Positions 19,059 through 33,612 of a stretch of DNA of 34,123 bases are shown piece by piece; within the stretch, counting starts at the first letter, position 1; every line of letters starts with the position of its first letter. Where the stretch lies: NCBI RefSeq assembly GCF_003334385.1, contig NZ_QOWN01000047.1. One strand, given 5' to 3'. This stretch comes from Escherichia coli. GTDB lineage: Bacteria; Pseudomonadota; Gammaproteobacteria; Enterobacterales; Enterobacteriaceae. Under the pieces are notes generated by a model. That model did no database searches. It worked only from the letters and a program-made list of their open reading frames with translations, and was not told where the DNA came from. The position numbers and the translations under genes were made by a program.

Positions 19059-19961
19059 TTATTGATAAACAAAAGTCACGGCAATAATCGATTGCACATT
19101 CCCTGCAGTCACCTGCCCTCCGGTACGTGCGTAATTTGCCGTTAATCCCAGACTTACCGCCGAAGTCCCTACTGCTCCTAACGATACCGTGTTATTCGCT
19201 GGAATAATCGTACCGTTGCGCGTCAACTGTACGCCGACGCCCTGTGCAGGTGAAAACGACGCGGTATTGGTGAAAATCGAGTTGCCCGCATCTGCGGTTG
19301 TGCCGGAGAGGTAATACCCCAGGTTTTGGCTTTTCGCACAATAAACGGTAAGAGGAATCGGCACTGAACCAGGGTAGTCCGGCAGAGTAACGGTGACATC
19401 ACGAGCAGAAACATCGCAGCCGCCAGTGGGCACCACCACATCATTATTGGCGTAAATATTCCACACAAACTGGAAATCATCGCTGTTATAGTTGTTGGTC
19501 TGTCGCAAAATAAGCACGGCAATTAATGAGCCAGCTTTAATCACCACCCCGCCCGCACTGCTCACAGGCGTCAAATAAAGCGCCACCGGCCACGGCTTAT
19601 CCGTTCTCGAATTATAAACAACCCGCGGCGTTTCACTGGTGGTCGGAAATGGATAGCTACTGCCACTATATTTTACGGTCCCGGAAAAATTAGATAACAC
19701 GCCGCCATAAGCCGAGCCTCGTTGCAGTGTGACATAATCTGTAATGGTTTCCGGGTAATCGTTATGGCAAAAGATTTGCGTCGAAAGATCCACGACCAGG
19801 TTTTGCCCCACATTCACGGCGGGCGCAAGGTTTACATAAACATTGGCGCTGCCACCGCCAATAGGGATAGCGGTGCCATTGGCGGTTTTACAGGCGAATG
19901 ACCAGGCATTTACCGACCAGCCCATCAGCAGTACAGCAAACAGGTTAATAACTCGTTTCAT
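19059..19961 (-). CDS. fimH: Type 1 fimbrial adhesin FimH (mannose-binding)
   Basis: ORF 19059-19970; start at MKRVI... gives 300 aa; mature N-terminus FACKTANGTAIPIGGGSANVYVNLAP recognised as FimH. Confidence 0.95.
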   Translation of the reverse strand: MKRVINLFAVLLMGWSVNAWSFACKTANGTAIPIGGGSANVYVNLAPAVNVGQNLVVDLSTQIFCHNDYPETITDYVTLQRGSAYGGVLSNFSGTVKYSGSSYPFPTTSETPRVVYNSRTDKPWPVALYLTPVSSAGGVVIKAGSLIAVLILRQTNNYNSDDFQFVWNIYANNDVVVPTGGCDVSARDVTVTLPDYPGSVPIPLTVYCAKSQNLGYYLSGTTADAGNSIFTNTASFSPAQGVGVQLTRNGTIIPANNTVSLGAVGTSAVSLGLTANYARTGGQVTAGNVQSIIAVTFVYQ

Positions 19962-19980
19962 TACAATCATCTCTTCGGCT

Positions 19981-20484
19981 TCAGCTGTAGGTATAGGTGA
20001 TGCTAATCACTGCCTGAATGGTTCCCTGAGTGGCTCCGCCATTTACCGTCAATGCTCTGACCTGTAACGGGAAGTGCGCTGATTGTGAGGAATCATCCAC
20101 CTGAACTGTTTTGGTTGCGCCACTATTCAATGTGTTGCCACTGTCATCCTGTAGCTCTAACTGGATGTTTTGCGCGGTCCCCTGGTTTTTATAATATCCG
20201 GTACTGTCGGCTGCCCCGCTGAAGCTGGCAGTGACCCTCGACGTTCCCACCGGACAATTAGTCAACTCAAGCGCAACATCATGCCAGGCCGATGCCGCCC
20301 CGGCAGACATCAGACTGAAAGAATAAAGATCGCCGAGATCTACCGTGGCATTGGTGGTGGAAACCGTGCACGGTTTGGCGACGACCTTACCGTTCACCGT
20401 GATGGTGACATCGGCTGCCTGTATCGTCGCACTTGCGAGCGCCAATATTGCCGCCAATACATACCCACGTTTGCACCATTTCAT
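19981..20484 (-). CDS. fimG: Type 1 fimbrial minor subunit FimG
   Basis: 167-aa pilin-like ORF with signal peptide, between fimH and fimF. Confidence 0.9.
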   Translation of the reverse strand: MKWCKRGYVLAAILALASATIQAADVTITVNGKVVAKPCTVSTTNATVDLGDLYSFSLMSAGAASAWHDVALELTNCPVGTSRVTASFSGAADSTGYYKNQGTAQNIQLELQDDSGNTLNSGATKTVQVDDSSQSAHFPLQVRALTVNGGATQGTIQAVISITYTYS

Positions 20485-20496
20485 GAGCCTCTCCAG

Positions 20497-21027
20497 TTAC
20501 TGATATTCAAGAGTGAAGGTAGCCGTGGCATTGATATGCCCCGCAGTGACAGGCACCTGTGTCGCCATTAGCCGGGCGTAAAAATTCAGCGTATTTGGTT
20601 TACCCGGCGTCAGGGTCGTCCACGAAATCGCGGACGATGGGGCATTAATGGGTATCTGATTTTGTTGCTCATTCAGAAGCTGTATTCCCAGTCCCGCAAC
20701 CGCTGACACCGTATTTTCAAGTGCAAGCAGGTTGGCATTGTGGCTATCTGCAACACCGGTAAACCCAACTTTTACGGCAGAAACGGCATTACCACAGGGT
20801 GACAGCAAAATACGAAATGGAACGACAGGAGTCGTCGCGCCAATGTTGTTAAATTGCTTCGCCGCGTTTTCCATCAGATCAACAGTAAAATTGGTTGATT
20901 CAGCGGCCACACTACAGCCGTTATCTCTGACATAGCCGCGGATAGTAATCGTGCTATCCGCAGCCAAAGCGTGACTTACCGCCAGCCACAAAAAAGCGCA
21001 CAGAAGATAAAAAGGTTTGTTTCTCAT
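20497..21027 (-). CDS. fimF: Type 1 fimbrial minor subunit FimF
   Basis: ORF 20497-21030; pilin-like with signal peptide; start at the second Met gives 176 aa. Confidence 0.9.
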
Positions 21028-21036
21028 CACGCCCCC

Positions 21037-23673
21037 TTAACGACATTCAGCTGATAGCTGAGTTAATAACTGCTGCTGACTCTCTGGTGGCAGTTGATAA
21101 TTGGCGACACAGTGAGCATTTTCCTCTTCTCCCCATTTCACCTGAACTTTTCCCGCTAAAGGCATTCCGCTGAGGTAAACCTGACCATTATCCGCAACAA
21201 TGCCGCTACTCTGGCTACTCTCTGATGTCACCATCGCCCCAAACGGCAGCGGCTTATTATTGTGGATTAGCGTCATGAGCAGTTTTATCCCAACGCGCGC
21301 TTTAAACTCTGCTCGCACGATCGCCCCACGGGTGGGAACAACGTTAGCGACCGCGTTATCTAAATCGACGTTATCAGCCAGGGTATTGGTATCCAGCGCT
21401 ACTCTGTTCTCCCGATATTCAGTGGCATAAGGCAGCACGGCATAACCGCGCCAGTCGGTACGCACCCCCGTCTGGTTTTCGACTTTTGCATCTTTTGCGC
21501 CAGGCGCTTTAACAAGCACCACCGTATCGTTTAACGGCTGCCCCAGCGTTACGCCATTGGCATGAGCCAGTACCCCACCGCTGACTCCGTAATAGAGCTG
21601 CTTAATATCATCGCTATGGCTGTAACCGATGTTGGCATTGCCGTAACCACCGCGATAATTCAGCGTGGCGTAGCCTGTACTTCCGCTATTACCATCACCT
21701 CCCCCGGCGTAACCGGTTTGCACGCTATAGCTGAGGTTGTTGTCTTCCAGCAACGTACCGTATACACCGACCAGATTGGTCATCCGACCGTTGAGATCGA
21801 GTGACATGCTGTAACTGGCACTGGCATGTCGCCACTGAGATTTACTGTCAGAACGCAGCCAGTGGCTGAAAGGAATATTGACGTTAAGCGCTAACATCTG
21901 ATCCCGTCCTTTTTGCCAGGCGTTTTTCGTCAGGCTATAGCTGAGCGTCCAGTTGATATCTTCGAATGCAGTATTTAAACCAGCCTGGAATTGCTCATCG
22001 ACATTACTCGTTCCCCAATAAGTTTGATGGCTACCACTCAAATACAGTGTTGATGTGCGCCCGAGTTGCTGAGTAACGGTGAGTTGTAATTTCCCGCGTT
22101 TGTTATAAGCGAGATTGTAATAGTCGGTGAATTTCGGCTTAACCTGAATAACACCATCCTGTGTTTCGATGTTGTAGCCATTCATTCGACTGTATGTTGT
22201 ATCAGCGAAATTAAAATATCCGCTGGTCGAATAACGGTAACCCACTAACTGAATATTCGTGCCTGATTCATTGAGCGATTTGTTATAGAGAAAACGCACC
22301 GATTGTCCGTCATGCTGACTGTCATCGGGAAGTGTGGAATTAGCCTGCGTCATATCCACAGACAGAGCGCCCAGTGCCCCCATGTTTTTCCCGATACCGA
22401 AATTAAACGCACGATAACGATCCGCCAGTTGCGTTCCACCATATATTGTCCAGCCAGCCGGAAGGCCGTGGAGTAATGTACTCTGGAAAAAGCGGGGTTT
22501 TTCCTGCTGCGCATTTCCACTACGGTATTCTCCTGCCGTAATGGAATAACGAGTATGCCCTTCACGTTGCAAAAGCGGGACTGACGAATAGGGTACGGTA
22601 AAGATCTGCGTGCTGCCGTCAGCCTCTTTAATCGTTACCTGCAAGTCACCACTATTACCTGCGGCATAGATATCGTTGATGGTAAAAGGCCCCGGCGGCA
22701 CCGTACTATTATAAATGTCATACCCATTTTGTTTAATAGTGACCTGTGCAGTACCACGAGCAATACCGTGGATCACCGGAGCAAATCCTCTTTGGCTATC
22801 GGGTAACATATTGTCATCTGAGGCCAATTGTGCGCCGCGAAAGTTAATACCATCGAAAATATCGCCCTGGGGATAACCATCACCCAGCGTCAGCCGGGAA
22901 CGTAACGGAATTATGTCTCGCTCAAGCCAGGTATTGATATGCTGCCATTTATTTTTGCTACCTGATGAACTGTCGCTACTGTTATAACTCCAGGTGGTAT
23001 TGTCGCGTAAACGCCACGCACCAATATTTAACCCACTCTGTAGGTTTAAATATGCATAATGGCTGTTACCCCCAATCCGATTCTGTACACTATTTCCGCT
23101 GAAATTATAATTGAGCAATCCGGCATTAATACCAGGATCCCATAACTCAGGAGGAATATAACCACGCGCGCGATTACTCATAAATGCCTGAGGGATCGTC
23201 AGGTTGAGTCGCTGCTGACCAACATCCAGATGCGCAGTAGCGTCATGGATCATTGAGGTTAATGGCACGCAGGCATCATCCGCCAGCAGATTCATACCGG
23301 AGACAGAAGCCGTATTCAACTCCATACTTGCAAGTTGCGCGCGTGTCAGGCAGGGAACAATCCCTTGTTCACTGTCGCCCGTATTAAATGTGACATCACG
23401 CGTTGCCATATAACCATTATTCAAATAGATATCGACACGATACGTCCCTGGCGGTAATTCTTGCCCATTTTCAAAACGCGATAAATCGGCCACAGCCTGG
23501 GGATCATCCGCTAAAAAGCGCGGATTAAAATAGAGTTCGGCAGATGACAAAGGTGCCTGTGCGGCAAAAGCACAGGCGACAAAGAGCCGGACAAAAAAAC
23601 CAGCCAAACGATGCTTACGAATATGCAAGCATTGTGTGTTTCGCTGGTAAAGTCTTAAATTCAGATATGACAT
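21037..23673 (-). CDS. fimD: Type 1 fimbrial outer membrane usher FimD
   Basis: 878-aa usher-family ORF in the canonical position. Confidence 0.95.
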   Translation of the reverse strand: MSYLNLRLYQRNTQCLHIRKHRLAGFFVRLFVACAFAAQAPLSSAELYFNPRFLADDPQAVADLSRFENGQELPPGTYRVDIYLNNGYMATRDVTFNTGDSEQGIVPCLTRAQLASMELNTASVSGMNLLADDACVPLTSMIHDATAHLDVGQQRLNLTIPQAFMSNRARGYIPPELWDPGINAGLLNYNFSGNSVQNRIGGNSHYAYLNLQSGLNIGAWRLRDNTTWSYNSSDSSSGSKNKWQHINTWLERDIIPLRSRLTLGDGYPQGDIFDGINFRGAQLASDDNMLPDSQRGFAPVIHGIARGTAQVTIKQNGYDIYNSTVPPGPFTINDIYAAGNSGDLQVTIKEADGSTQIFTVPYSSVPLLQREGHTRYSITAGEYRSGNAQQEKPRFFQSTLLHGLPAGWTIYGGTQLADRYRAFNFGIGKNMGALGALSVDMTQANSTLPDDSQHDGQSVRFLYNKSLNESGTNIQLVGYRYSTSGYFNFADTTYSRMNGYNIETQDGVIQVKPKFTDYYNLAYNKRGKLQLTVTQQLGRTSTLYLSGSHQTYWGTSNVDEQFQAGLNTAFEDINWTLSYSLTKNAWQKGRDQMLALNVNIPFSHWLRSDSKSQWRHASASYSMSLDLNGRMTNLVGVYGTLLEDNNLSYSVQTGYAGGGDGNSGSTGYATLNYRGGYGNANIGYSHSDDIKQLYYGVSGGVLAHANGVTLGQPLNDTVVLVKAPGAKDAKVENQTGVRTDWRGYAVLPYATEYRENRVALDTNTLADNVDLDNAVANVVPTRGAIVRAEFKARVGIKLLMTLIHNNKPLPFGAMVTSESSQSSGIVADNGQVYLSGMPLAGKVQVKWGEEENAHCVANYQLPPESQQQLLTQLSAECR

Positions 23674-23739
23674 TATTCCTCCGGTTTAAAATCACCCGGC
23701 AGTCAATTCTTTTTATTCAGGCGAAAAATTCCCCCTGCG

Positions 23740-24465
23740 TTATTCCATTACGCCCGTCATTTTGGGGGTAAGTGCGCCATAATCATTTATTGTTCGGTAA
23801 GTAATATTGCTTCCTGCATCAGAAGGCAATTTAACCGTGCTTTCGCCCATTGGAGGCACCAATGCATTTTCAAGAACCCGGGTTCCGGCATTCAACTCTG
23901 TTACCGTCAGGTAATAGGGTGTCGGGTTAATCAGAGTCAGAGAATTCGCGCTACGACGAAATCTTAATTTTTCTGCGGCCTGATCGGGTGGCAACGCTAA
24001 TTTAGCCGGGCGATAGTACAGTTTAATGCGGCTGATAATTGCGAGCTGTAGCGTATTCTCAGTCAATTTTGATTTATCCATTGACGGAATCGCTTTAACG
24101 TTCATCCAGAATAAACTTTCCCGATCCTGTGGCAATTGGTTATTTGTTGCATCAAGAATACGTAAGGTATTCTCTTTTTTTCCCTTCATCGCAAACAGAG
24201 GTGGCGTCACGATAAAACGACCATCCTTTACACCATCGGCATTTTCCACCCATGATTGAATTAAATAGGTGCTATTTTCATCATTATTTGTCACGGCAAG
24301 TTGCACTTGTTTTTGCCCTGCCGGATAAATTACGCGAGTCGCACCTAAGGCCACTCCCGCTTCGGCGCGTCCGGCAACCATCATTGCCATGAACATCAGG
24401 ATACCTGCCAGCAAGCAGAATGTTATTTCCTGCGATTTCCTTACATTGACGTTTTTATTACTCAC
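23740..24465 (-). CDS. fimC: Type 1 fimbrial periplasmic chaperone FimC
   Basis: 241-aa PapD-like chaperone with signal peptide. Confidence 0.95.
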   Translation of the reverse strand: MSNKNVNVRKSQEITFCLLAGILMFMAMMVAGRAEAGVALGATRVIYPAGQKQVQLAVTNNDENSTYLIQSWVENADGVKDGRFIVTPPLFAMKGKKENTLRILDATNNQLPQDRESLFWMNVKAIPSMDKSKLTENTLQLAIISRIKLYYRPAKLALPPDQAAEKLRFRRSANSLTLINPTPYYLTVTELNAGTRVLENALVPPMGESTVKLPSDAGSNITYRTINDYGALTPKMTGVME

Positions 24466-24501
24466 TGTCCTGTTCCTGTTATCACATTATCTGCTGAACA
24501 A

Positions 24502-25041
24502 TTACTGATAGGTTAAAGAGAACCAGGCCTGGGCATTGGCGATGCCGCCAGTAACCCGACGCCCGGTAGCACGATATTTGGCGATGAAATGTAGCGAAGT
24601 AGAGCCTGAGTAAAGCCGTTTCCAGTTTGCTGGAGGACGATTAATCGGTACGAGGTTTCCTTCATCATCAAACAACGCTACGCCAATATTGGTGGCTATC
24701 CCTGGCCCCTCTCCCACGGAAAGCACATCTGGATTTTTACCATCCGCGACACCGTGAAACGCCACACCCACACGTTCACTCACCACCGTGCTACATTCCC
24801 GTAAATGAATAACAAAAGGCACCGGTGCGCTATCTTCCCCTACCGCATGAAACCGGTTACTGCTGATTTGCCCCATATTGACCGTCATTTGTTTATCACC
24901 GGCTTCAATCCGGCAAGTTTCCGCAATAATGACGCCCTGAAATTGCATATTTCCGCCGGGCAGCGTGGTGTTCCATTTATTTCCGGCCAGAGCAAACATT
25001 GGCAGCAACGACGCTAATAGAAATAATCTCTTCCTTTTCAT
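24502..25041 (-). CDS. fimI: Type 1 fimbrial subunit-like protein FimI
   Basis: ORF 24502-25173; start at internal [19 protein letters not shown] gives 179 aa pilin-like protein. Confidence 0.85.
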
Positions 25042-25105: not shown

Positions 25106-25660
25106 TTATTGATACTGAACCTTGAAGGTCGCATCCGCATTAGCAGCACCCGGGGTTGCCTCGCCGATTGCATAATAACGCGCCTGGAACGGAATGGTGT
25201 TGGTACCGTTATTCAGGGTTGTTTGTGCACTAAATGTCGCACCGTCCAGCGTCAGCTCATTTCCTGTTCTGTCCAGTATCTGCACACCAACATTTGTTGC
25301 GCTACCCGCAGCTGAACTCTGCAGAGCCAGTACTTTAGGATGAGCACTGTCAATCGCAGTCCCCAAGAAGGCAACAGCGGCTTTTGTGGCAACACTGGTA
25401 TCGCAATCATTCAGCTGAATGTTAAAACCGACAGCAGAGCTGGTTGCTCCAGTCTGCTTCAGACTAGCGGTACGAACCTGGCCCAACTGAACGGTTTGAT
25501 CAACAGAGCCTGCATCAACTGCGCAAGCGGCGTTAACAACTTCCCCTTTAAAGTGAACGGTCCCACCATTTACCGTCGTGGGTGTAGTTTCAGCCAGAGC
25601 CGCTGTAGAACTCAGGGACAGAGCCGACAGAACAACAATTGCCAGAGTTTTAATTTTCAT
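25106..25660 (-). CDS. fimA: Type 1 fimbrial major subunit FimA
   Basis: 184-aa pilin ORF ([18 protein letters not shown]..., C-terminal ...ATFKVQYQ), immediately next to the fimS switch. Confidence 0.95.
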
Positions 25661-25779
25661 ACTGCTTTCCTTTCAAAAAACTATTTCTAAATCGACATGG
25701 GCAGTCGTTCCGTACACTTTGTTTTGTCAACGAGTTTGACTGCCAACACTGCACAGTTTCCCCCCAAAAGATGAAACAT

Positions 25780-26094
25780 TTGGGGCCAAAACTGTCCATA
25801 TCATAAATAAGTTACGTATTTTTTCTCAAGCATAAAAATATTATAAAACGACAAAAAGCATCTAACTGTTTGATATGTAAATCATTTCTCTTGTAAATTA
25901 ATTTCACATCACCTCCGCTAAATGTAAAGCTAACGTTTCTGTGTCTCGAAGCAACTTCCTCATTCTTCTCTCCAAAAACCACCTCATGCAATATAAAAAT
26001 CTATAAATAAAGATAACAATAGAATATAAAGCCAACAAATAAACTGAAAAAGTTTGTGCGCGATGCTTTCCTCTATGAGTCAAAATGGCCCCAA
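25780..26094. mobile_element. fimS: fimS invertible phase-variation switch (about 314 bp) bounded by 9-bp inverted repeats
   Basis: TTGGGGCCA at about 25780-25788 and its inverse TGGCCCCAA at about 26086-26094 flank an AT-rich segment between fimA and fimE, matching the known fim switch architecture. Confidence 0.85.
25799..25829 (-). promoter_or_regulatory. Candidate fimA sigma70 promoter inside fimS, reading toward fimA (switch ON)
   Basis: On the minus strand, TTGAGA (about 25829-25824), an 18-bp spacer and TATGAT (about 25805-25800) lie just inside the fimA-proximal inverted repeat and point at fimA. Confidence 0.6.
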
Positions 26095-26141
26095 TTGTCT
26101 TGTATTTATTTGTTTTTTACCTTTACTATCAATAAGTTAAA

Positions 26142-26738
26142 TTAAACCTCTTCTCTTTTTAATTTTTCGTTTATAAGATTATTTCTTTCCCATAATCCGG
26201 CAAAACGAGCAGCATTACTGGCGGTATAACGCACAGTATGGCGAATATTTCGATGCCCGAGATAATCCTGAATTAAACGGGTATCTGCACCACGCTCCGC
26301 CAGTTCATAACCGCAAGCATGCCTTAACATATGAGGATGAGTCTGCGTTACGGTTCCAGCTTCAATACCGGCATCGCGAATAATGCGATAGGCCTGCTGG
26401 CGAGAAAGCCGACTCCCGCGGCGAGAAATAAATATAGCGTCGGTCCGGTCAGCGCCTTTCCAGTTAGCACGTTCCTGGGTCCAGCGTTCCACGGCTTCAC
26501 GCTCATCAAAACGTAACGGGTGAACGGTAGAAAATCCGTTCTTCAGTCGGCGAATATTTATTCGACCTTCATTAAGGTCAAGGTCCTGATAATGCAGATC
26601 AAGCAGTTCACTAATACGCATCCCATGCCGATATGCCAACAGAATAAGACAATAATCTCTGGCTCCCGTTGCCCCGTAACAAACCGCCTGCATCATGGCC
26701 TGAACTTCTTTACCGGTAAGATAACGACGTTTACTCAC
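26142..26738 (-). CDS. fimE: Tyrosine recombinase FimE (ON-to-OFF switching)
   Basis: 198-aa lambda-integrase-family ORF with C-terminal HxxR...Y catalytic signature (LGHRNIRHTVRYT); ends about 50 bp from fimS. Confidence 0.95.
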   Translation of the reverse strand: MSKRRYLTGKEVQAMMQAVCYGATGARDYCLILLAYRHGMRISELLDLHYQDLDLNEGRINIRRLKNGFSTVHPLRFDEREAVERWTQERANWKGADRTDAIFISRRGSRLSRQQAYRIIRDAGIEAGTVTQTHPHMLRHACGYELAERGADTRLIQDYLGHRNIRHTVRYTASNAARFAGLWERNNLINEKLKREEV

Positions 26739-27214: not shown

Positions 27215-27817
27215 CTATAAAACAGCGTGACGCTGTCGTCCTCTGGCCCTATCCCAGATGCCGTAAAAACGCCCTGCATTGCTGGCGGTATACCAGACAG
27301 TATGACGAATATTGCGATGCCCAAGATAATCCTGGATAAGTCGCGTATCTATTCCCATATTCGCCAAAGCAAAACCACACGAATGGCGTAACATGTGCGG
27401 ATGAATCTCCAGTGACAACCCGGCATTACCACCGGAAGTCGAGATAATATGGTAAAACTGTTGCCGAGAAAGCGGATTCCCCTTACGCGATAAAAATACC
27501 CATTCGCTCTCAGCATGCGGGTACGAAGTACGGATACTCAACCAGTTTTTTAAAGCCTGAACTTCTTTGTTCAATAGCGGGTGCGTTGTTGAAAAGCCTT
27601 TTTTTAATCGATGGATATAGATACACTTTGCCTTAAGATCAATATCCGAAATCCTCAATCGACAAATTTCACTCGCCCGGAAACCATGAATAAAACAAAG
27701 CAAAGTCAGACAATAATTACGTGCTGCATGAGGCCCGGTATTTGCTGCTTTAAGGAGTGATTCGATTTCACTATGGGTCAGGAAGTTCCTTTTTTTGTTA
27801 TCAGCCTTATTCTTCAT
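27215..27817 (-). CDS. fimB: Tyrosine recombinase FimB (bidirectional switching)
   Basis: 200-aa paralogue of FimE (LGHRNIRHTVWYT) upstream of fimE. Confidence 0.95.
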   Translation of the reverse strand: MKNKADNKKRNFLTHSEIESLLKAANTGPHAARNYCLTLLCFIHGFRASEICRLRISDIDLKAKCIYIHRLKKGFSTTHPLLNKEVQALKNWLSIRTSYPHAESEWVFLSRKGNPLSRQQFYHIISTSGGNAGLSLEIHPHMLRHSCGFALANMGIDTRLIQDYLGHRNIRHTVWYTASNAGRFYGIWDRARGRQRHAVL

Positions 27818-28825
27818 CGTTTTCCCTTATAATTACAGACGCGCACTAGCTGTGCTGGGTTAGCAATAATCCAACATTTTAATCCTGATTATGTTTATAA
27901 AAGCGAACGTTTGCTTAATAACTAACGTAAGTGGACCAGTTCTTCTGAGTGAACTTAAATGGAGTAGCGATAGTTACTTATAATAACTTTGCCATACAAA
28001 CGCCATGCTCTTGCATGCTATGTACCTTTATATATTTATAAATCTGATACGAATCGAATAATAACCCTCATCATTAATGCAACTAATCTTATCTATATAT
28101 CATGTGATATGTTCTGTAACAAGTAAAATCAACATAAAAAATTCAGCAAAATTTAATATTCGTTCAACTAGCCGTCTCACATATGACATTATTAGTCAAC
28201 TGCATTTGCCACAAAATGGCTATTTCATGGAACGCAGTAATTTTTTAGTGGCTATTATCATGCTAATTCTTAGATCCCTAGCGATTATTCCTGCCTGGTT
28301 CGTCAGCTTAGGCCATGAGATTGTTACATTCCCTTTTATCCTGGAGATATGGGGGAACGCAGGCGACGCTTTTTCATCTACATCCGTTGGTAACTATGGC
28401 TTTGGTCACTACGACTTAAACCTTCCTCAATCACAGCTATTCGCCGGGCGATACGGCAAACAAACTAAGTGAAACATCATCCTGAAAACACCAACATCAA
28501 CAAGCCTCTCCAGATCGACATCAGGAGTGACCAGTTACAAGCCACAAACCAAGAAACATATTTCATGATGAGAATTATACTCAGCCTGATGGCGGGTAAA
28601 CACTTATTTTCACCAAGCTCACTGAGTTAGCTTGCAAAGCTTTCTTTGTTTAGATTCTAAATAAATTATTTACAAAACAGATTGTTAAAAGAAAACCTTT
28701 AGTTTTTGAAGACCAATGCAAGTGTTCGTCTGTCTTCACATGGCATCTGCTTCTTAGGAAAAGATCGACATATTTTGTGACACGAATTGCAAATCTGGTT
28801 TTGTTGTATGGATTGCGTGATTTTT

Positions 28826-28852
28826 GATCTGGTATAACAGGTATAAAGGTGC
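28826..28852. promoter_or_regulatory. Candidate NanR operator (tandem GGTATA repeats) with adjacent Dam GATC site
   Basis: GATCTGGTATAACAGGTATAAAGGTG read directly; GGTATA repeats are the NanR recognition element, sited in the long fimB-nanC intergenic region. Confidence 0.6.
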
Positions 28853-29270
28853 ACCGCGATAGTCAATGAGACTGGGCATCTCGTAATCTATGGCAAACAT
28901 CACTTCAGTTCTTTCTCATCGGGTGATGAAAACGCACTTCAGTCTGAAAGGAATATGAAAATGAGATCAACAGACACTCTATTTTATGACTCTGGGTAAA
29001 ATGGATTGAGTAAGCGATATAGCTTACGAAAATTCAAATCAATTAAACATCAGCAGAGATTTTATACTCAGGTATTTAATCTGGCCCTCTGTTTATTTAA
29101 ATAATGTGGAAAGAGATTTTTCACAGGAGATATTATACAAAAAATATAAAATACAGCTACCGGTTGCCAAAGACACTATAAGCCTGGCAAAAAAATATTA
29201 CACAACATAAATGCTAATTGTTTATGCGGGCTTTGTATTGCTTTCTGTATCCTACAAATGAGTGAAATTT

Positions 29271-31142: not shown

Positions 31143-31177
31143 CTATCAATTTGTCATTTCAATTACGCGAAATTTAT

Positions 31178-32158
31178 ATGAACGCAATAATATCGCCTGA
31201 TTATTACTATATTCTTACCGTTGCTGGTCAGTCTAATGCCATGGCGTATGGCGAAGGACTGCCATTACCGGACAGGGAAGATGCGCCTCATCCCAGAATT
31301 AAACAATTAGCGAGATTTGCGCATACGCATCCCGGAGGCCCGTCATGTCACTTTAACGACATTATTCCACTGACTCACTGCCCACACGATGTTCAGGATA
31401 TGCAGGGTTATCACCATCCTCTGGCAACGAATCATCAAACACAGTACGGCACCGTTGGCCAGGCACTGCATATAGCACGGAAATTACTGCCCTTTATTCC
31501 TGATAATGCAGGGGTTCTCATCGTTCCGTGTTGCCGTGGCGGATCGGCTTTTACCGCGGGCAGCGAAGGGACATATTCAGAACGGCACGGAGCCAGCCAT
31601 GATGCTTGTCGTTGGGGAACGGATACTCCGCTATACCAGGATTTAGTCAGCAGAACGCGAGCCGCACTGGCAAAAAATCCGCATAACAAATTCCTCGGCG
31701 TATGCTGGATGCAAGGCGAATTTGACTTAATGACCAGTGACTACGCGTCACACCCTCAACACTTTAATCATATGGTTGAAGCCTTTCGTAGGGATCTAAA
31801 ACAATACCATTCTCAGCTTAATAATATTACTGACGCACCGTGGTTTTGCGGCGATACCACCTGGTACTGGAAAGAAAATTTCCCTCATGCGTATGAAGTT
31901 ATTTATGGCAATTATCAAAATAATGTTTTAGCCAATATTATTTTCGTCGACTTCCAGCAACAAGGTGAAAGAGGACTGACGAACGCGCCTGATGAAGACC
32001 CGGACGATTTAAGCACGGGATATTACGGTTCAGCGTACCGGTCACCGGAGAACTGGACGACGGCACTGCGAAGCAGTCATTTCAGCACGGCAGCCCGTCG
32101 GGGGATTATTTCTGACAAGTTTGTAGAAGCAATTTTGCAGTTTTGGCGCGAAAGGTGA
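31178..32158 (+). CDS. nanS: Probable 9-O-acetyl-N-acetylneuraminate esterase NanS
   Basis: ORF 31151-32158 (TTG-initiated in the track); ATG at 31178 (MNAIISPDYYYILTVAGQSNAMAYG) gives 326 aa with SGNH-like GQSN motif. Confidence 0.85.
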   Translation: MNAIISPDYYYILTVAGQSNAMAYGEGLPLPDREDAPHPRIKQLARFAHTHPGGPSCHFNDIIPLTHCPHDVQDMQGYHHPLATNHQTQYGTVGQALHIARKLLPFIPDNAGVLIVPCCRGGSAFTAGSEGTYSERHGASHDACRWGTDTPLYQDLVSRTRAALAKNPHNKFLGVCWMQGEFDLMTSDYASHPQHFNHMVEAFRRDLKQYHSQLNNITDAPWFCGDTTWYWKENFPHAYEVIYGNYQNNVLANIIFVDFQQQGERGLTNAPDEDPDDLSTGYYGSAYRSPENWTTALRSSHFSTAARRGIISDKFVEAILQFWRER

Positions 32159-32165
32159 GCGTTCA

Positions 32166-32816
32166 TTAATTTGATTTATTCGCATCCATCAGCGCTTTTA
32201 ACTGCTCCGGCGTAAACGGTGGTTTGCGTCGGTGCAACATCGCATGGCAATTAGGGTACACAGGCAGCAAATCATTAACTGGATCCAGCTGGTAATCCTC
32301 TTTGATGGCTGACAGCGGCACCAGGTGATGCACATGGATAAAGCCTTCAGCGATATCACCATAGATCTTCACCAGATCAACACCGCATACGTTGCACTGG
32401 CATCCATGATGTTCGACCGCTTTATCTCGGGCCTTTTTATCGCGTTCATAGCGGTTTACTGTCACCTTTATCGCCGCACCTTCAAGGTATGTCTCCTGCG
32501 ACGGCAACTCATCCGGGAACAGAACGTCGGCTATGGGAGCCGCAGCGGCTTTATCCAGATGAATATGAAATCCCTGCTCTATGAGTAGCTTGACACATTT
32601 AGATTTTATTCCGCCGGTGAAATCCGCAGGGGTAAATTGCGTCCCCGTCATCAATGTCGCTGCGATGCCAGCAATCGCCTTCGAGGGGTAACGTCGGCCA
32701 TGATATTCAATCTCATACAACCGCGCAGGCTGGAACTGATGAGTTTCTCCCGCATCCCATAAATGGATAGCTTCGATGATATACCGCCGCGGAAGATGAT
32801 CAGGGAGTTTATTCAT
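32166..32816 (-). CDS. HNH endonuclease with N-terminal putative modified-DNA (possibly phosphorothioate) sensing domain; candidate type IV restriction enzyme
   Basis: 216-aa ORF. C-terminal HNH signature read directly: CQCNVCG ... HVHHLVP ... NDLLPVYPNCH. N-terminal about 120 aa contains RRYPSKA (Y-P-x-x-A), reminiscent of the sulfur-binding cavity of SBD domains; the SBD assignment is inference. Confidence 0.6.
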   Translation of the reverse strand: MNKLPDHLPRRYIIEAIHLWDAGETHQFQPARLYEIEYHGRRYPSKAIAGIAATLMTGTQFTPADFTGGIKSKCVKLLIEQGFHIHLDKAAAAPIADVLFPDELPSQETYLEGAAIKVTVNRYERDKKARDKAVEHHGCQCNVCGVDLVKIYGDIAEGFIHVHHLVPLSAIKEDYQLDPVNDLLPVYPNCHAMLHRRKPPFTPEQLKALMDANKSN

Positions 32817-32919
32817 GGAGAATGTCCTTATACGTTCTCAGAACAGGCAGCAAAAAAACAAATGAGATCAAGGTAATATATCTTCACTTGCAGGCTTGAA
32901 CAGCAGAAAATTTGCGAGC

Positions 32920-33138
32920 ATGATCGCAATTATTTCACTGCCAGGGATATCAATAGCTTCCAGTAAATCGCTACAGCAGGCAATTGCCAATATAAAAATC
33001 TGGCACAAGGGTGAACAGCGCGCGCCGCATAAGCCATTGTTATTGCTATACGTATTAGCGGGATACCTGAATGGACATCCGCGCCTTTTCGATTATTGTA
33101 GTGGAACTGTCTACGAGGATGCAGTTCGAAGTGAGTAA
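32920..33138 (+). CDS. Hypothetical small protein (possible gene remnant), divergent from the HNH gene
   Basis: ORF 32896-33138 (TTG in track); first ATG at 32920; no recognisable domain. Confidence 0.25.
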   Translation: MIAIISLPGISIASSKSLQQAIANIKIWHKGEQRAPHKPLLLLYVLAGYLNGHPRLFDYCSGTVYEDAVRSE

Positions 33139-33161
33139 GTAAAGGTTGCTGGAAACGATCA

Positions 33162-33380
33162 ATGCCGCCATACAATGATTTTTTAGGATCAACAATGAGT
33201 AATAAAAACTACGAAAGTCACCGCAAAGCGATTGTTAGTAAAGGTATACCACCCGCTCTATTAAATAGGCTCACCAATTCGGATGTTCAGGTGATCAATA
33301 CCTTCTTAACACGAGTGAGCAAACTGGAACTATCTCAACAAGAGAAAGACTGGATCATAAAAATCATCTCTATGGTTTAG
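33162..33380 (+). CDS. Hypothetical small protein
   Basis: 72-aa ORF; an internal ATG preceded by AGGA would give 61 aa; different frame from the preceding ORF; no recognisable domain. Confidence 0.25.
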   Translation: MPPYNDFLGSTMSNKNYESHRKAIVSKGIPPALLNRLTNSDVQVINTFLTRVSKLELSQQEKDWIIKIISMV

Positions 33381-33581
33381 ACAATTTCAGCCTTGTAGCC
33401 TTTCAAGGGTTTTGTGTGGGTACAAACATTATCGAATCGGGGTATAGCCGCAGCTGTAGCTGTATCCACATCAGTAAGTTGATGTAGGTTGACTTAGGTT
33501 GAGCGAAAAATAGCGAAAAGCCTTGTGTGGCGCGGATTTCAGTCATAAAAAAACGTCCGTTGATGTCTATTGATGTTCCGA

Positions 33582-33612
33582 TGGTGCGAAGGTGCGAAGG
33601 CCGGACTCAAAC
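33582..33612 (-). repeat. Degenerate copy of the tRNA-Leu (leuX) 3-prime end; putative island attachment-site remnant
   Basis: Minus-strand read GTTTGAGTCCGGCCTTCGCACCTTCGCACCA matches the T-arm/acceptor 3-prime end of leuX (GGTTCGAGTCCGGCCTTCGGCACCA) with one deletion and an 8-nt tandem duplication; no complete tRNA is present. Confidence 0.55.

Follow-up and report, generated by a model that had tools for sequence, protein, structure and literature searches.

The stretch of DNA analysed here (hereafter the window; 34,123 nucleotides of Escherichia coli contig NZ_QOWN01000047.1) carries the type 1 fimbrial genes on its minus strand, together with two tyrosine recombinase genes and a short segment bounded by inverted repeats. 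In a genome that is 99.9% identical, RefSeq annotates the fim genes under the same names. The genes and the parts of the switch are arranged as follows:

19059-25041, minus strand: fimI-fimC-fimD-fimF-fimG-fimH, genes for structure and assembly downstream of fimA, each with an intact open reading frame
25106-25660, minus strand: fimA, the major type 1 fimbrial subunit and first gene driven by the switch
25780-26094, minus strand: fimS invertible element, 315 bp, assigned to phase ON by its identity to the inverted MG1655 fimS and its ON restriction patterns
25780-25788: IRR, the fimA-proximal 9-bp repeat, TTGGGGCCA on the plus strand and TGGCCCCAA on the minus strand, exact match
26086-26094: IRL, the fimE-proximal 9-bp repeat, exact match
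25863-25875, minus strand: putative IHF site II TATCAAACAGTTA, inside fimS, a match to the consensus WATCAANNNNTTR
26127-26139, plus strand: putative IHF site I TATCAATAAGTTA, just outside IRL, a match to the same consensus
26142-26738, minus strand: fimE, tyrosine recombinase (ON to OFF), 198 aa, 100% identical to K-12 FimE
27215-27817, minus strand: fimB, 200-aa tyrosine recombinase acting in both directions, 100% identical to K-12 FimB

Across the whole window the 9-bp repeat TTGGGGCCA has exactly two copies, one on the plus strand (25780-25788) and one on the minus strand (26086-26094), and it is the fimS inverted repeat sequence published previously (PMC9820224). A sequence-only reading of this DNA had described the repeats as intact, and both arms are indeed exact, at the ends of the element as that reading had placed it (25780-26094). 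They lie 297 nt apart, giving an element of 315 bp with both repeats counted. Chance alone would supply 0.41 matches to the repeat, and two or more copies turned up in 8 of 100 shuffles. Since a pair of 9-mers is by itself weak evidence, our identification of fimS rests on homology and synteny. After inversion, the element aligns globally to the fimS of MG1655 with 304 of 315 positions identical (97%). It sits inside the 481-nt non-coding gap that separates fimE on one side from fimA on the other, upstream of fimAICDFGH. The features that mark fimS were all found at this position: repeats bounding about 314 bp, location between fimE and fimA, homology to the reference, and adjoining fimB and fimE genes. 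On these grounds of homology and position, we identify 25780-26094 as E. coli fimS, the promoter switch of the type 1 fimbrial operon.

The closest comparison is thus the 314-bp type 1 fimbrial phase switch of E. coli K-12, which was reportedly described by Abraham et al. in 1985 and Klemm in 1986. Beyond repeats, position and overall identity, the two share FimB and FimE proteins without a single difference, consensus matches for IHF sites I and II, and the SnaBI, BstUI and HinfI landmarks used below. Promoters carried on short segments bounded by inverted repeats and flipped by adjoining tyrosine recombinases are also found in Klebsiella (fimS with FimB and FimE) and Proteus (mrp with MrpI). 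In contrast to those switches, what the window holds is not an analogue but the fim locus of E. coli. Both the element and its state are textbook biology.

The remainder of the window contains several features in their own right. Between fimB and nanC lies a non-coding stretch of about 1.4 kb (27818-29261), as in K-12, in which a relative has one short hypothetical open reading frame annotated. Past nanC and nanM, from about 31150 to 34123, the sialate O-acetylesterase gene (nanS) is annotated as partial in strain 102651, a genome 99.9% identical to the window; an HNH endonuclease open reading frame (32166-32816, minus strand) and then restriction and prophage-like gene fragments follow. The match of most genomes to the window ends near 34088, and this region (about 31150-34123) resembles the boundary of a variable island. 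The RNA 2'-phosphotransferase gene kptA (7355-7909, minus strand) is intact here (184 aa) and is annotated as frameshifted in strain 102651. Rfam and tRNA scans of the whole window found no Rfam families and no tRNAs.

Within fimS, the orientation-specific landmarks are placed as follows:

25800-25829, minus strand: candidate fimA promoter directed toward fimA, with -35 TTGAGA (25829-25824), an 18-nt spacer and -10 TATGAT (25805-25800)
25813-25818: SnaBI site TACGTA of a published orientation assay, marking the promoter end of fimS, which faces fimA here
25852-25880, minus strand (the fimA coding strand): sequence identical to the GrpQ footprint published for the 'phase-ON orientation', at -220 to -192 from the fimA ATG
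26059-26062: BstUI site CGCG, marking the promoter-distal (Lrp/Fis) end of fimS, which faces fimE here

In a consensus scan of positions 25600-26250, the TTGAGA-18-TATGAT pair scored 10 of 12 and was the best of four sigma-70-like sites. The sequence-only reading had called it the only good promoter of this type inside the element; it is the best match, but three weaker sites scoring 9 of 12 are also present. The earlier description of a promoter abutting the fimA-proximal repeat and pointing into fimA holds: the candidate -10 ends 11 nt short of IRR. The candidate -35 is preceded, at a distance of about 34 nt, by the putative IHF site II. Four sites in this interval do not represent a regional excess (2.2 ± 1.4 in shuffled sequence). 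We tentatively take the two hexamers to be those of PfimA, the fimA promoter that Olsen & Klemm reportedly mapped in 1994. A search of the literature for the fimA promoter hexamers and the transcription start yielded reviews and figure legends only, as the sequence figures are images. Because the assignment of these hexamers to PfimA is tentative and the scan is not significant regionally, we judged orientation by experimentally calibrated assays instead.

Using the published SnaBI assay primers CAGTAATGCTGCTCGTTTTGCCG and CAGAGCCGACAGAACAACG (PMC11724981), we computed digests in silico for three sequences: the window, its synthetic inversion and MG1655. The published fragment sizes are 403+198 for ON and 440+161 for OFF (PMC11724981). 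The window yields a 602-bp product that is cut into 405+197, the ON pattern, and both MG1655 and the synthetic inversion yield 162+440, the OFF pattern. We ran the BstUI and HinfI assays in the same way, with presumed assay primers. For BstUI, the sizes published for the Dorman laboratory assay are 433+293 in the ON and 539+187 in the OFF orientation. The computed fragments were 293+435 (ON pattern) for the window and 540+188 for MG1655 and the synthetic inversion. The HinfI assay reportedly gives 489+70 when fimS is ON and 359+200 when it is OFF; in silico, the window gave 75+485 (ON pattern), and MG1655 and the synthetic inversion gave 359+201. The computed sizes deviate from the published ones by 1-5 bp, which the 315-bp allele and differences between strains explain in part.

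Two further landmarks concern the direction of the element. According to a paper from the Dorman laboratory, the BstUI site sits at the promoter-distal end of fimS and IHF-1 adjoins IRL. As the end carrying the BstUI site and the Fis and Lrp region faces fimE here, the promoter end faces fimA. The GrpQ footprint in phase ON was placed at -219 to -191 from the fimA ATG (PMC11724981), and its exact copy in the window is offset by 1 nt because of the extra A in the 315-bp allele. In a direct MAFFT alignment, MG1655 carries the fimS core inverted relative to the window; the core is not colinear, so we took the identity value from the global alignment of the inverted element.

These data support the conclusion that fimS in this record has the orientation known in the literature as phase ON, as the sequence-only reading had proposed: the promoter end adjoins fimA, the three digests are of the ON type, and MG1655 is OFF. 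We consider it practically impossible that the state has been assigned the wrong way round and that fimS is really OFF. We found no support for such an error, the one soft point being that the consensus promoter scan by itself is statistically weak. Against it stand the three restriction-based assays, which rule it out, the promoter-distal BstUI/Fis/Lrp end on the fimE side, and the opposite orientation and OFF patterns of MG1655. The majority orientation among assemblies, which is opposite to that of the window as expected for OFF, is in line with the ON assignment as well.

That majority comes from a survey of 5426 complete genomes of E. coli. The locus is present in 4721 of them, and a match was counted when a single piece covered 80% or more of a 641-bp query. 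The orientation of the window was found in 248 of the 4721 genomes and the opposite orientation, queried with a synthetic inverted version, in 4458. Among the 4706 complete assemblies with a called orientation, about 5% (about 1 in 20) are therefore ON. FimE activity is described in the literature as predominant, with most cells OFF, and the low share of ON assemblies is consistent with the bias of FimE from ON to OFF. The 641-bp switch region of strain 102651, whose surrounding 25 kb are 99.9% identical, matches the window at 100% identity and in the same orientation. Many genomes also carry the same 315-bp allele, 100% identical, in the OFF orientation.

Two assemblies of one O104:H21 strain illustrate the inversion. 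They have identical flanks and opposite fimS orientations: 94-3024 (CP009106.2) is ON like the window, and ATCC BAA-178 (CP023541.1) was assembled OFF, its fimS being identical to the window element once reverse-complemented. The occurrence of both orientations among genomes, and in two assemblies of one strain, is comparative evidence that the segment really inverts. The fimS of 94-3024 (locus positions 1469-1781) is 313 bp long, unlike that of the window, owing to two single-base homopolymer deletions relative to ATCC BAA-178, which are probably sequencing errors. A separate variation was seen in relatives that include strain 126 and EC5, where an IS1, accompanied by a 9-bp duplication GAGAAGAGG, lies in the last fimE codons and about 50 nt away from IRL (1594-2363 in loci L004 and L005, equivalent to window positions 26147-26155). 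Inversion apparently still takes place in this lineage, since strain 126 has fimS in the ON and EC5 in the OFF orientation.

According to the established model, FimB and FimE, encoded just upstream, recombine the two 9-bp repeats, which the half-sites of both tyrosine recombinases overlap, with help from IHF and Lrp through DNA bending. FimB inverts the segment both ways and FimE mainly from ON to OFF. In the ON orientation, PfimA would transcribe fimAICDFGH; a flip of the segment would disconnect the promoter from fimA and turn the operon OFF. Inversion also links or unlinks fimE and a Rho-dependent terminator inside fimS. Promoter activity, the recombination mechanism and a fimbriate culture are what we infer from this literature. 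The identity and orientation of the element, the intact recombinase and structural genes, and the presence of both orientations in near-identical genomes come from the sequence and its comparison.

With every part of the switch wild type, the ON state of this record is almost certainly a snapshot of a reversible, working switch and not a fixed genotype. We considered a locked-ON mutant, in which a defective recombinase, repeat or cofactor site would hold fimS in the ON orientation. ON is the minority state among assemblies (248 vs 4458), and a lesion that fixes it is one route there. Such a lesion is nevertheless extremely improbable here, and we rejected it: FimB and FimE are identical to their K-12 counterparts, both inverted repeats are exact, both IHF consensus sites are present at positions that agree with published descriptions, and the identical allele is OFF elsewhere. 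Moreover, by a rough count from the match lists, about 27 of about 451 genomes with an at least 99% identical locus are ON, near the overall 5%. This appraisal covers the window; the trans-acting ihf and lrp lie outside it.

The fimS allele of the window differs from the 314-bp element of MG1655 by one extra A and 10 substitutions. The additional base falls in a run of four A residues at 25789-25792 (TTGGGGCCAAAAC; three in K-12), between the promoter-side repeat and the -10. The 315-bp allele is common and occurs in both orientations. Because the extra A lies in the recombinase half-site region, it could alter FimB or FimE binding, or the spacing between promoter and repeat, and so shift the bias toward ON in this lineage. 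We regard this as very unlikely, as the ON share in the rough count above is no different from the overall fraction, and the extra A thus shows no sign of biasing the state.

The record shows the orientation adopted by the assembler, presumably that of the majority of reads. The chief alternative left is a choice by the assembler between two populations: the culture may have been mixed or mostly OFF, with the inversion bubble resolved to ON by chance or by polishing order. It is established that fimS populations are normally mixed, and the differing assemblies of 94-3024 and ATCC BAA-178 would fit such a choice. However, assemblers normally take the majority path, and, with repeats of only 9 bp, any read spanning a junction reveals the orientation. 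The strong OFF skew in the 4706 assemblies likewise suggests that the assembled orientation tracks biology and is not a coin flip. Overall, we find an arbitrary orientation unlikely. The sequence-only reading had gone on to state that the assembly represents a piliated state, which may reasonably be inferred from the ON orientation. As this orientation is needed for fim transcription yet not sufficient for it, we would say that the cells may have been piliated.

In summary, the window records the E. coli type 1 fimbrial switch in its less frequently assembled orientation. Such an ON record is useful for annotation, where an apparent 315-bp 'inversion' between strains is to be read as phase variation and not as divergence. 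The orientation also hints at the growth or selection of the sequenced culture, and the share of about 5% ON among complete E. coli assemblies may serve as a baseline.
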